Shown here piece after piece: positions 3,006 through 61,800 of a DNA stretch of 64,000 nucleotides. The notes below the pieces were generated by a model, which did no database searches, had not been told where the DNA came from, and worked only from the letters and a program-made list of their open reading frames with translations. The DNA comes from Escherichia coli (GTDB lineage: Bacteria; Pseudomonadota; Gammaproteobacteria; Enterobacterales; Enterobacteriaceae), in NCBI RefSeq assembly GCF_044647545.1, contig NZ_CP172818.1; one strand, given 5' to 3'. The translations under genes were made by a program, and so were the position numbers. Each line of letters begins with the position of its first letter. Position 1 is the stretch's first letter.

Positions 3006-4514
<1,509 letters not shown>

Positions 4515-4552
4515 GAGAGGCAATCAGTGATTGCCCTCTGCGTTTTTTCTCA
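4515..4552 (+). terminator. Probable rho-independent terminator after putP
   Basis: GC-rich hairpin (agaggcaatcagtgattgccctct) followed by a T-run (gcgttttttctc). Confidence 0.6.
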
Positions 4553-4611
4553 AAATATTTTTACATCTTCTCATCATTATCACTACATTTCACTTGTATT
4601 TTTCTTCATCG

Positions 4612-4629
4612 TAATGATAATCGCTATCA
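4612..4629 (+). promoter_or_regulatory. Fur-box-like site upstream of efeU
   Basis: taatgataatcgctatca resembles the Fur consensus GATAATGATAATCATTATC; a second Fur-like hexamer array (tcatcattatcac) lies at ~4571-4583. Confidence 0.6.
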
Positions 4630-4687
4630 CTGCGATTTACTTTTCTTTGCATAGATTGACTCAGAAAAACGTTTAAGGGTGGGTGGC

Positions 4688-5518
4688 ATGTTTGTTCCAT
4701 TTCTCATTATGTTGCGCGAAGGACTTGAAGCCGCGCTGATTGTCAGTTTGATTGCCAGCTATCTTAAGCGTACCCAGCGAGGCCGATGGATTGGTGTGAT
4801 GTGGATTGGCGTGTTGCTTGCCGCTGCGTTGTGCCTGGGCTTGGGTATCTTCATTAACGAAACCACCGGTGAATTTCCGCAAAAAGAACAGGAACTGTTT
4901 GAAGGCATCGTGGCGGTGATCGCCGTGGTGATCCTTACCTGGATGGTTTTCTGGATGCGCAAAGTGTCGCGCAACGTCAAAGTACAACTGGAGCAGGCGG
5001 TCGATAGCGCATTGCAGCGTGGAAATCATCATGGCTGGGCGCTGGTGATGATGGTTTTTTTTGCCGTTGCAAGGGAAGGGCTGGAGTCGGTCTTTTTCCT
5101 GCTGGCGGCATTTCAACAAGATGTCGGGATCTGGCCGCCGCTGGGTGCAATGCTCGGTCTTGCTACAGCCGTGGTGCTTGGCTTCCTGCTCTACTGGGGC
5201 GGTATTCGCCTCAATCTTGGTGCATTTTTTAAATGGACCAGCCTGTTTATTCTCTTCGTCGCCGCAGGGCTGGCGGCTGGTGCCATTCGCGCATTTCATG
5301 AAGCCGGATTGTGGAACCACTTTCAGGAAATCGCCTTCGATATGAGCGCGGTGCTCTCAACTCACTCGCTGTTTGGCACGCTGATGGAAGGGATTTTTGG
5401 CTATCAGGAAGCGCCGAGTGTCAGCGAAGTCGCCGTCTGGTTTATTTATCTCATCCCGGCGCTGGTGGCATTTGCTCTGCCACCACGCGCAGGGGCGACA
5501 GCGTCTCGCTCCGCGTAA
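4688..5518 (+). CDS. efeU: Ferrous iron permease EfeU (FTR1/OFeT family), apparently intact
   Basis: Continuous ORF (track 4679..5518; the ATG at 4688 gives 276 aa) containing two REGLE motifs (MLREGLEAAL and VAREGLESVF). Confidence 0.9.
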   Translation: MFVPFLIMLREGLEAALIVSLIASYLKRTQRGRWIGVMWIGVLLAAALCLGLGIFINETTGEFPQKEQELFEGIVAVIAVVILTWMVFWMRKVSRNVKVQLEQAVDSALQRGNHHGWALVMMVFFAVAREGLESVFFLLAAFQQDVGIWPPLGAMLGLATAVVLGFLLYWGGIRLNLGAFFKWTSLFILFVAAGLAAGAIRAFHEAGLWNHFQEIAFDMSAVLSTHSLFGTLMEGIFGYQEAPSVSEVAVWFIYLIPALVAFALPPRAGATASRSA

Positions 5519-5575
5519 CAAATACGACGCAAACTCTTGCTTAGTTACAACATACTTTAAAGGGATAGTCTCGTC

Positions 5576-6703
5576 ATGACCATTAACTTCCGCCGTAACG
5601 CATTGCAGTTGAGCGTGGCTGCGCTGTTCTCTTCTGCTTTTATGGCTAACGCCGCTGATATTCCGCAAGTCAAAGTGACCGTAACGGATAAGCAGTGCGA
5701 GCCGATGACCATTACGGTTAATGCCGGTAAAACACAGTTCATTATTCAGAACCACAGCCAGAAGGCGCTGGAGTGGGAGATCCTCAAAGGCGTGATGGTG
5801 GTGGAAGAGCGGGAAAATATCGCCCCTGGCTTTAGCCAGAAAATGACGGCGAATTTACAGCCTGGCGAATACGATATGACCTGCGGTCTGCTGACTAACC
5901 CGAAAGGGAAGTTGATCGTCAAAGGTGAGGCAACGGCGGATGCGGCGCAAAGTGATGCGCTGTTAAGTCTTGGTGGTGCAATTACTGCATATAAAGCGTA
6001 TGTCATGGCGGAAACCACGCAGCTGGTGACCGACACCAAAGCCTTTACCGACGCGATTAAAGCAGGCGATATCGAAAAAGCGAAAGCACTGTATGCGCCG
6101 ACGCGCCAGCACTATGAGCGCATTGAACCGATTGCTGAACTGTTCTCCGATCTGGATGGCAGCATTGACGCCCGTGAAGATGATTACGAGCAAAAAGCCG
6201 CCGATCCAAAATTCACCGGTTTCCACCGTCTGGAAAAAGCATTGTTTGGCGATAACACCACTAAAGGGATGGATAAGTATGCCGACCAGCTTTATACCGA
6301 TGTGGTCGATTTGCAAAAACGCATCAGTGAACTGGCTTTCCCACCTTCAAAAGTGGTCGGCGGTGCAGCCGGACTGATTGAGGAAGTGGCAGCCAGCAAA
6401 ATCAGCGGTGAAGAAGATCGCTACAGCCACACCGATCTGTGGGATTTCCAGGCTAACGTTGAAGGCTCGCAGAAAATTGTCGATCTGCTGCGTCCACAAC
6501 TGCAAAAGGCCAACCCGGAACTGCTGGCAAAAGTCGATGCCAATTTCAAAAAGGTCGATACCATTCTGGCGAAATACCGAACCAAAGACGGTTATGAAAC
6601 TTACGACAAGCTGACCGATGCCGACCGTAATGCGCTGAAAGGGCCGATTACTGCGCTGGCGGAAGATCTGGCGCAATTTCGTGGTGTGCTGGGACTGGAT
6701 TAA
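5576..6703 (+). CDS. efeO: Periplasmic iron uptake protein EfeO (cupredoxin-like plus peptidase M75 domain)
   Basis: ORF 375 aa with N-terminal signal peptide (…[12 protein letters not shown]); recognised as E. coli EfeO/YcdO. Confidence 0.92.
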
Positions 6704-6708
6704 GCGTT

Positions 6709-7980
6709 ATGCAGTATGAAGATGAAAACGGCGTGAATGAACCGTCACGCCGACGTTTACTGAAAGGGATTGGCGCGCTGGCGCTGGCAGGAAGTTGTCC
6801 GGTAGCGCATGCTCAAAAAACGCAAAGTGCGCCGGGGACGCTTTCACCGGATGCGCGCAGTGAAGCGCAGCCGTTTTATGGCGAACATCAGGCGGGTATT
6901 CTGACGCCGCAGCAGGCGGCAATGATGCTGGTGGCGTTTGATGTGCTTGCCAGCGATAAAACCGATCTTGAACGGTTGTTTCGCTTGTTGACTCAGCGTT
7001 TTGCTTTTCTGACTCAGGGCGGAGCGGCACCAGAAACGCCAAATCCGCGCCTGCCACCACTCGATTCCGGCATTCTTGGCGGCTACATTGCGCCCGATAA
7101 TCTCACCATAACGTTATCGGTGGGTCACTCATTGTTTGATGAGCGCTTTGGCCTTGCGCCACAGATGCCAAAAAAGTTGCAGAAGATGACGCGTTTCCCT
7201 AACGACTCGCTGGATGCGGCGTTATGTCATGGTGATGTGTTGCTACAAATTTGCGCCAACACCCAGGACACGGTGATCCATGCGCTGCGCGATATCATCA
7301 AACACACGCCGGATTTGCTCAGCGTGCGCTGGAAGCGGGAAGGGTTTATTTCCGACCACGCAGCGCGTAGTAAAGGCAAAGAGACGCCGATAAATTTGCT
7401 GGGCTTTAAAGACGGCACCGCCAATCCCGATAGCCAGAATGCGAAGTTGATGCAAAAAGTGGTGTGGGTGACGGCAGATCAGCAGGAGCCTGCGTGGACA
7501 ATCGGTGGCAGCTATCAGGCAGTACGCTTGATTCAGTTTCGGGTGGAATTTTGGGACAGAACGCCGCTGAAAGAGCAGCAGACGATATTTGGTCGTGATA
7601 AGCAAACCGGTGCGCCGCTGGGAATGCAGCATGAGCATGATGTTCCCGATTACGCCAGCGATCCGGAAGGGAAGGTGATCGCGCTGGACAGCCATATTCG
7701 GCTGGCGAATCCCCGCACGCCAGAGAGTGAGTCAAGTCTGATGCTGCGTCGTGGCTACAGTTATTCACTGGGCGTCACCAACTCCGGGCAACTGGATATG
7801 GGGCTACTGTTTGTCTGCTACCAACACGATCTGGAAAAAGGCTTCCTGACAGTACAAAAAAGGCTCAATGGCGAAGCGCTGGAGGAATACGTTAAACCCA
7901 TCGGCGGCGGTTATTTTTTTGCGCTGCCGGGAGTGAAGGACGCGAATGATTATCTCGGAAGCGCGTTATTGCGGGTTTGA
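6709..7980 (+). CDS. efeB: Dye-decolorising (DyP-type) haem peroxidase EfeB, Tat-exported
   Basis: ORF 423 aa; twin-arginine signal [16 protein letters not shown]; recognised as EfeB/YcdB. Confidence 0.92.
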
Positions 7981-7991
7981 ACGACGCAAAT

Positions 7992-8096
7992 ATGCCCGAT
8001 GCGCAGGTTTATCGGGCATGAGTTTTGTGCACAAATTATTAATCACTTGTAGGTCGGGTAAGGCGTTCGCGCAGCATCCGGCAAACACGAGGCACA
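7992..8096. repeat. REP/BIME-type extragenic palindromic repeats
   Basis: Imperfect palindromes tgcccgatgcgcaggtttatcgggca and gtaggtcgggtaaggcgttcgcgcagcatccggca, typical of E. coli REP units. Confidence 0.7.
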
Positions 8097-16198: not shown

Positions 16199-17617
16199 AT
16201 GGAAAAAGACTATTTGGGAATTAGTAGTACTGTATTAGTGAGTTTATTGTTTGGGCTTGCGTTGGTTTTGGTGAATAGTTGGTTCAATCAGCCAACCGTT
16301 GAGGAAGTTGTTCCACGATCAACCTATCTGATGGTTATGATTGCTTTATTTTTTATCGATACTGTTGCATTTATTTTTATGCAGTTGTATTTCATTTATG
16401 ACCGTAGGCAATTTTCAAACTGTATACTTAGTTTGGCTTTTCTAAGTTGTTTGATTTACTTTATTAAAACCGTCATTATCATTCAGCAAATTATTGAGGG
16501 GCGTTTGACAAGCAGTGTTGTTCAAAATGACATTGCAATTTATTATTTGTTTCGTCAGATGAGTTTGTGCGTATTAATATTTCTGGCATTGGTAAATAAA
16601 GTTAGTGAAAACACAAAACAGCGCAATTTGTTTTCCAAAAAAGTGACTTTGTGCATAACTTTGTTTTTTGTTCTTGGGGGGCCGATAGTTGCTCACATAT
16701 TTTCTAGCCATTATGAGAGCTACGATTTACACATTGCCGAGTTAACCAATGAAAATGGTCAGGTGGTTTGGAAAGCCTCATATGTTACCATAATGATTTT
16801 CATGTGGTTAACCTTGCTTTCGGTTAATCTATACTTTAATGGTTTACGCTGTGATATCTGGAACGGGGTGTCGGTGATTGCTTTTTGTGCCGTGCTGTAC
16901 AATATCTCTCTGTTATTTATGAGCAGGTATAGCGTGTCCATTTGGTATATTAGTCGCACTATTGAAGTAGTCAGTAAGTTAACCGTTTTGGTAATTTTTA
17001 TGTGCCATATATTCAGTGCGCTACGAGTAACAAAGGACATTGCACATCGCGATCCCTTAACCAATATATTTAACAGAAATTATTTTTTTAATGAACTGAC
17101 GGTTCAATCAGCATCGGCCAAAAAAACACCTTATTGCGTCATGATTATGGATATTGACCACTTCAAAAAAGTCAACGACACCTGGGGACATCCGGTTGGC
17201 GATCAAGTGATAAAGACAGTGGTGAATATCATTGGGAAAAGCATACGACCAGATGACCTTTTAGCGCGCGTTGGCGGCGAAGAGTTTGGCGTCTTGCTGA
17301 CGGAGATCGATACTGAATGTGCGAAAGCTTTAGCGGAAAGGATTCGGGAAAATGTTGAACGTTTAACTGGCGATAATCCTGAATACGCCATACCACAAAA
17401 AGTGACGATTAGTATTGGCGCTGTTGTAACGCAGAAAAATGAGTTAAACCCTAAGGAGATCTATCAACTGGCTGATAACGCACTTTACGAGGCGAAAGAG
17501 ACCGGGCGTAATAAGCCGCTGTCGCCAGTTGTCGACCTCCGCTTGGGGCTTCTCATCCCCCCGGTGTGTGCAATATACGAAAAAAAAGCCCGTACTTTCG
17601 TACGAGCTCTTCTTTAA
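16199..17617 (+). CDS. dgcT: Membrane-anchored diguanylate cyclase DgcT/YcdT (GGDEF domain, GGEEF active site); C-terminal tail runs into the serX terminator
   Basis: ORF track 16109..17617; MEKDYL... start at 16199; GGEEF motif in ...LARVGGEEFGVLL...; N-terminal multi-TM region. Confidence 0.85.
   Translation: MEKDYLGISSTVLVSLLFGLALVLVNSWFNQPTVEEVVPRSTYLMVMIALFFIDTVAFIFMQLYFIYDRRQFSNCILSLAFLSCLIYFIKTVIIIQQIIEGRLTSSVVQNDIAIYYLFRQMSLCVLIFLALVNKVSENTKQRNLFSKKVTLCITLFFVLGGPIVAHIFSSHYESYDLHIAELTNENGQVVWKASYVTIMIFMWLTLLSVNLYFNGLRCDIWNGVSVIAFCAVLYNISLLFMSRYSVSIWYISRTIEVVSKLTVLVIFMCHIFSALRVTKDIAHRDPLTNIFNRNYFFNELTVQSASAKKTPYCVMIMDIDHFKKVNDTWGHPVGDQVIKTVVNIIGKSIRPDDLLARVGGEEFGVLLTEIDTECAKALAERIRENVERLTGDNPEYAIPQKVTISIGAVVTQKNELNPKEIYQLADNALYEAKETGRNKPLSPVVDLRLGLLIPPVCAIYEKKARTFVRALL
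17585..17612 (-). terminator. Rho-independent terminator downstream of serX
   Basis: Minus strand reads gagctcgtacgaaagtacgggc followed by TTTTTTTT, immediately 3' of the tRNA; it overlaps the last codons of the ycdT ORF. Confidence 0.7.

Positions 17618-61090: not shown

Positions 61091-61800
<710 letters not shown>

Follow-up and report, generated by a model that had tools for sequence, protein, structure and literature searches.

The closest described counterparts of the locus analysed here are the EfeUOB (formerly YcdNOB) systems of other Escherichia coli strains. EfeUOB is a low-pH-stimulated transporter of ferrous iron, in which EfeU is a 276-aa permease of the OFeT family with seven transmembrane (TM) segments, homologous to yeast Ftr1p, EfeO is a Sec-exported cupredoxin/M75 protein and EfeB is a Tat-exported haem peroxidase of the DyP type (PMC9174327). 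A table in PMC4746246 describes the system as iron-repressed and low-pH-induced. Two reports describe the system as functional in E. coli O157:H7 (Cao et al. 2007, Mol Microbiol 65:857) and EfeU as functional (Grosse et al. 2006, Mol Microbiol 62:120). In strain MG1655, on the other hand, a frameshift in efeU leaves the transporter non-functional (PMC2808357).

The locus lies in a 64,000-nt stretch of E. coli DNA, the whole of which is called the window below. We are highly confident that positions 4594-8030 hold the ordinary wild-type efeUOB operon of an E. coli other than K-12, one that apparently belongs to a phylogroup-F/ST648-like lineage. The features of the locus are as follows:

4594-4621, plus strand: candidate sigma-70 promoter, read by eye, composed of TTGTAT (4594-4599), a 16-nt spacer and GATAAT (4616-4621)
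4610-4628, plus strand: Fur-box-like operator CGTAATGATAATCGCTATC, a 15/19 match to the consensus GATAATGATAATCATTATC
4636-4650, minus strand: CpxR-box-like sequence GCAAAGAAAAGTAAA, 3' of the Fur box, a 9/10 match to GTAAA-N5-GTAAA
4688-5518, plus strand: efeU, intact gene of an Ftr1/OFeT-family iron permease, 276 aa (ORF, NCBIfam, Pfam, protein identity)
4792-4793, plus strand: GG dinucleotide at codon 35/36, intact here, one G of which is absent in K-12 (MAFFT alignment)
5576-6703, plus strand: efeO, 375 aa (NCBIfam, Pfam and PDB match)
6709-7980, plus strand: efeB, gene of a DyP-type haem peroxidase/deferrochelatase, predicted to be Tat-exported, 423 aa (TIGR01412, Pfam, PDB)
about 7991-8030, plus strand: terminator-like hairpin, 11 nt past the efeB stop codon (consensus match only)

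The three genes are co-oriented, with gaps of 57 nt between efeU and efeO and of 5 nt between efeO and efeB, and putP (3006-4514) is located upstream of efeU. The hairpin at 7991-8020 that follows efeB has a stem of 11 pairs, 5 of them GC, with the tail AGTTTTGTGC after it, and probably marks the 3' end of the efeUOB operon.

This arrangement is that of the O157:H7 EfeUOB (YcdNOB) system, in which the genes have the same order and are equally spaced. EfeU of O157:H7 EC4115 is identical (0 differences in 276 residues), and its EfeO and EfeB are nearly so (371 of 375 and 415 of 423 residues, respectively). The sequence between the Fur box and the start codon is part of a match to EC4115 of 97.6% identity. 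The spacer between putP and efeU is unlike, since in EC4115 it carries a 1,344-nt hypothetical gene, whereas the window has a spacer of 173 nt. The EfeU of E. coli Nissle 1917, the strain with which Grosse et al. reportedly worked, is likewise an intact 276-aa permease, preceded by a near-identical promoter and 5' UTR. It is distinguished from the protein of the window by three residues (Nissle to window I8M, V263A and M276A), none of them in the motifs, and Nissle 1917 has retained 46 bp after putP which the window does not have.

The ORF list of the window contains an uninterrupted plus-strand frame at 4679-5518, which encodes 279 aa when read from a GTG codon. The original prediction had used both 4679 and 4688 as the beginning of efeU. 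The latter stands, as ATG 4688 is the start given in RefSeq for the identical gene of genome FDAARGOS_497 (276 aa), whereas position 4679 is an upstream in-frame GTG, by which the mechanical ORF is 3 codons longer. The sequence AAGGGTGGGTGG lies directly 5' of the ATG. The gene is 831 nt long and has no internal stop codons, and the two REGLE motifs of its product are found at residues 10-14 and 129-133; the description of efeU as a single uninterrupted ORF with both REGLE motifs thus agrees with the ORF list and with the motif positions.

The identity of the protein is supported by the NCBIfam EfeU equivalog NF041756 (331 bits, cutoff 255), by the EfeU/Ftr1 model TIGR00145 (352 bits, cutoff 304, spanning 1-273 of 276 aa) and by Pfam FTR1, which covers residues 1-275 (E = 1.8e-89). 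The translation shows 0 differences from WP_000497942.1, a protein common to FDAARGOS_497, O157:H7 EC4115, one human isolate and one cat blood isolate. The end-to-end Pfam FTR1 match and the paired REXXE motifs are what EfeU shares with the Ftr1p/Fet3p system (OFeT) of Saccharomyces cerevisiae. The partners of EfeU are different, i.e. a cupredoxin/M75 protein and a DyP haem peroxidase, not a multicopper oxidase. EfeU would be an Ftr1p-like permease of the inner membrane and its two REGLE motifs the iron-handling sites that are the signature of the family.

A crude Kyte-Doolittle scan (19-residue window, threshold 1.6) returned six hydrophobic segments in EfeU (1-24, 32-60, 68-94, 146-173, 177-204 and 242-266), compared with the seven TM segments of the literature; the region of residues ~115-140, where a helix is expected around the second REGLE, was below the threshold. 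No solved homologue of EfeU was found in PDB by a sequence search at E <= 1e-3. An antisense ORF of 215 aa (4673-5320, minus strand), fully overlapping efeU, was dismissed as a shadow ORF without significance.

The original prediction described the efeU gene of K-12 as a frameshifted pseudogene. RefSeq likewise lists efeU of the K-12 strain CETR2G40 among the pseudogenes, flagged 'frameshifted', whereas the efeO and efeB genes of that strain are intact. A MAFFT pairwise alignment gave a length of 830 nt for K-12 efeU (CP064679) versus 831 nt in the window, with a single K-12 gap, which falls at window position 4793, and 12 further substitutions. In K-12 the original frame runs into a stop two codons past the deletion, and the +2 frame encodes the remaining part of EfeU with 0 amino-acid differences from the window. 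The 1-nt gap and the RefSeq flag show that this description was correct. The same alignment, which had been proposed as a check, located the frameshift and showed that neither the K-12 lesion nor a premature stop is present in the ORF of the window. The two loci are otherwise alike in the putP-efeO setting, in the residues encoded once the K-12 frame is restored and in the intactness of efeO and efeB; they are unlike in the one G at codon 35/36, which the window has and K-12 does not.

The frequency of both alleles was determined by counting exact matches to two probes, a 60-nt K-12 sequence centred on the deletion and the corresponding 61-nt sequence of the window. The efeU locus was found in 5,417 of the 5,426 complete genomes of E. 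coli that were searched. The K-12 60-mer has an exact match in 368 of the 5,426, and the carriers among the matches listed had, without exception (40/40), laboratory-strain names or sources; they include MG1655 derivatives, DH5alpha, C600, J53, NEB 5-alpha, HST04 and ER strains. The intact 61-mer is matched exactly in 3,637 of the 5,426 genomes, and most of the remaining ones, e.g. Nissle 1917, differ from it by a SNP. The allele counts and the strain names together indicate that the K-12 allele is peculiar to a single laboratory lineage, which has been re-sequenced many times. In the species as a whole an intact efeU is the norm, and the lesion of K-12 is the exception. Being the norm, the intact state says little about a genome beyond 'not K-12', and the original prediction gave too little weight to this. 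The K-12 frameshift has been in print since 2006-2007, and the presence of intact efeUOB in non-K-12 E. coli is already known and is nothing new.

In genomes H36 and H38 a 'hypothetical protein' is annotated beside efeU. It was considered as part of a split efeU and rejected, as it corresponds to a 303-nt antisense ORF of the spacer; efeU is intact in both genomes, with the same protein accession WP_000497942.1.

An intact frame could also be produced by an error of sequencing or assembly that added one false G to a gene frameshifted as in K-12, and the window does have a stretch that is garbled (61266-61796) and, in comparison with its closest relative, two places where short segments are absent. 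The probability of such an origin is, in our judgement, virtually nil. The efeU region is 100% identical to FDAARGOS_497 over 1,061 nt, a stretch of 10 kb is identical, the 46-bp absence apart, to many independent genomes, and the exact intact 61-mer recurs in thousands of genomes, as given above. Moreover, the gene is separated from that of K-12 by the 12 further SNP positions. An artefact as the source of the intact frame was therefore rejected, being effectively refuted by the independent genomes and the K-12 SNPs.

The garbled stretch mentioned above lies between flgL and rne and consists of ~530 bp of homopolymer-rich, low-complexity sequence with long A, T, C and G runs. At the equivalent position FDAARGOS_497 carries a toxin/antitoxin pair, of which the toxin is a GNAT-family acetyltransferase and the antitoxin belongs to DUF1778. 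In the alignment the stretch looks like the reference in smeared or degraded form, and most likely it arose as an artefact of sequencing or assembly. At 17515-17519 the window is without ~53 bp of FDAARGOS_497 and has 'CCG' instead. This site is located at the 3' end of dgcT, a gene for a GGDEF diguanylate cyclase upstream of a tRNA-Ser gene, and the absence would change the C-terminus and the stop of dgcT. The assembly behind the window thus shows signs of local errors; none of these irregularities falls in the efeUOB coding sequences or in the Fur-box region.

Both genes following efeU had also been claimed to be intact, and our analysis bears this out: efeO and efeB have no internal stops, their products match NCBIfam equivalogs from end to end and the proteins are identical to those of FDAARGOS_497. 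EfeO matches NF007697 over its full length (1-375/375, 771 bits), contains the Pfam domains Cupredoxin_1 (13-115) and Peptidase_M75 (135-367), the HxxE motif HRLE at residue 217 and an N-terminal signal sequence, and is matched by the solved EfeO structure PDB 7wgu (E = 3e-228). It differs by 4 substitutions from EfeO of O157 EC4115, by 5 from that of K-12 and by 0 from that of FDAARGOS_497. EfeB gives an end-to-end match to TIGR01412 (616 bits), contains Dyp_perox_N and Dyp_perox_C of Pfam and is matched by the YcdB/EfeB structures PDB 2y4f, 2y4d and 3o72 (E ~1e-263). It bears the twin-arginine motif SRRRLLK at residue 13 and the DyP motif GFKDG, and it retains D235, H329 and R347, i.e. the distal Asp/Arg and the proximal His expected of DyP peroxidases. 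Its substitutions number 8 versus O157 EC4115 and 0 versus FDAARGOS_497. Taken together, 4-8 positions separate EfeO and EfeB from their O157 and K-12 counterparts, and the catalytic and signal motifs are kept. EfeO would be a Sec-exported iron-binding protein of the periplasm with cupredoxin and M75 domains, and EfeB a Tat-exported haem DyP peroxidase.

The conserved D235, H329 and R347 of EfeB, a haem peroxidase of the DyP type, and the name given to EfeB in NCBIfam, 'deferrochelatase/peroxidase subunit', are also what one would expect if the operon were intact and its main role were something other than direct import of Fe2+ at low pH. EfeB might then serve as a haem deferrochelatase, or the operon might be a route of Fe3+ import. 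In the latter variant, which was proposed for EfeUOB of Bacillus subtilis, EfeB oxidises Fe2+ with peroxide, and EfeO and EfeU import Fe3+. The functions proposed for EfeB are indeed diverse and comprise peroxidase activity, binding of haem/PPIX and removal of iron from haem (PMC9174327; Letoffe et al. 2009). However, in published work on E. coli (Cao et al. 2007), Fe2+ uptake reportedly depended on all three genes, and we regard a different main role as unlikely. Import of Fe2+ and a role in haem or Fe3+ utilization are not mutually exclusive, and sequence does not discriminate between them. For the chemistry of the system, Fe2+ oxidation by EfeB/EfeO before translocation, extraction of haem iron by EfeB and Fe3+ import are all candidates.

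The regulatory region was analysed for the elements expected of a low-pH, iron-repressed Fe2+ importer, which is the role that we prefer for efeUOB. Both strands of the whole window were scanned with the 19-bp Fur consensus GATAATGATAATCATTATC, and CGTAATGATAATCGCTATC was the sole 15/19 match and the top score in the 64 kb, in accordance with the earlier observation of a Fur-box-like sequence in the efeU promoter. It is situated 60-78 nt 5' of the efeU ATG, and K-12, FDAARGOS_497 and Nissle 1917 all have it unchanged. The hexamers TTGTAT and GATAAT plausibly represent the efeUOB promoter, whose -10 hexamer would then lie inside the Fur box; a consensus promoter scanner picked not these hexamers but another, weaker site at 4560-4589. 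Matches to the CpxR box of the quality of GCAAAGAAAAGTAAA were not above chance in the window (7 versus 4.8 expected), and this box is kept only as a positional note, because efeU is listed under negative CpxR control in a table citing Cao et al. (2007). In the proposed mode of regulation, Fe2+-Fur would repress the operon by way of an operator that overlaps the -10 region, and CpxR would repress it at higher pH, so that efeUOB would be expressed under iron limitation combined with low pH.

One may ask whether the operon could nevertheless be silent or inactive despite its intact frames, either through altered regulation or through the substitutions in EfeO and EfeB. The 4 and 8 changes relative to O157 EC4115, as well as the unusual intergenic region upstream of efeU, with its 46 absent bp, would be compatible with this. 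However, the substitutions are common to the whole FDAARGOS_497/ST648-like group (0 differences) and are placed outside the checked motifs. Moreover, the Fur box, the -10 region and the 5' UTR are the same as in Nissle and K-12 from window position ~4600 onward, and the 46-bp gap is at least 90 nt 5' of these elements. We find inactivity of the operon very improbable and retain the reading of efeUOB as a working wild-type operon.

The 46 bp are missing just past the putP stop codon, with the junction at 4518/4519 (region 4500-4552), which sits at a short AGAG microhomology. They are present in FDAARGOS_497, in Nissle 1917 and in the best-matching complete genomes, all of which align in two pieces, and none of the best 25 matches listed from the 5,426 complete E. 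coli genomes was contiguous across the junction. Without these bases, the intrinsic terminator of putP loses the outer portion of its 5' arm. With the 46 bp, this terminator has a stem that is perfect over 13 bp (-29.2 kcal/mol, z = -6.5) and is called by the scanner, whereas in the window the hairpin is interrupted (-19 kcal/mol, z = -2.3) and is not called. The absence could mean either read-through into efeUOB or an error of the assembly. If the 46 bp are truly missing, transcription that starts at the proline-inducible promoter of putP might read through and make the expression of efeUOB partly independent of Fur and linked to proline, a scenario that we consider extremely unlikely.

The spacer between putP and efeU is hypervariable in E. 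coli. It measures 173 nt in the window (4515-4687), 219 nt in FDAARGOS_497 and Nissle 1917, 542 nt in K-12 and ~2.7 kb in O157:H7 EC4115. The K-12 surplus of ~370 bp includes REP-like, GC-rich palindromes, and in some genomes with longer spacers a 303-nt antisense hypothetical ORF is annotated. Conservation resumes ~100 nt 5' of efeU, at the Fur box.

With respect to lineage, the window is ~99.95% identical to FDAARGOS_497 (99.94-100% in four blocks that make up the whole window), and a 10-kb stretch is 100% identical, one gap apart, to FDAARGOS_497, MS6198, ECONIH1, Ecol_881 and others. The putP-efeU junction groups the window with ST648, IAI39, SMS-3-5 and CE10. We take these to be phylogroup-F strains, and the window apparently resembles strains of the phylogroup-F/ST648 type. 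The proposal that the locus is not MG1655-like is thus upheld, as its closest genomes are FDAARGOS_497, MS6198, ST648, IAI39 and SMS-3-5.

In the published model, the EfeO/EfeB pair would bind and oxidise periplasmic Fe2+, which would then pass through EfeU. The original prediction ascribed acid-induced Fe2+ uptake to this genome, and such a proposal is well grounded in the identity of EfeU with that of O157:H7 EC4115 combined with the report of Cao et al. (2007). We infer that efeUOB is expressed and transports iron in the strain from which the window comes. Given three intact proteins and an EfeU that does not differ from that of O157:H7, what is best supported would be that a Fur-repressed, acid-favoured route of Fe2+ uptake is working in this strain.

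The strain would therefore be expected to possess one more iron-acquisition route than K-12, as do O157:H7, Nissle 1917 and EAEC 042. Intact efeUOB is useful as a lineage marker, which in this case shows that the window is not K-12. It is K-12 that is atypical with regard to the uptake of ferrous iron at low pH.
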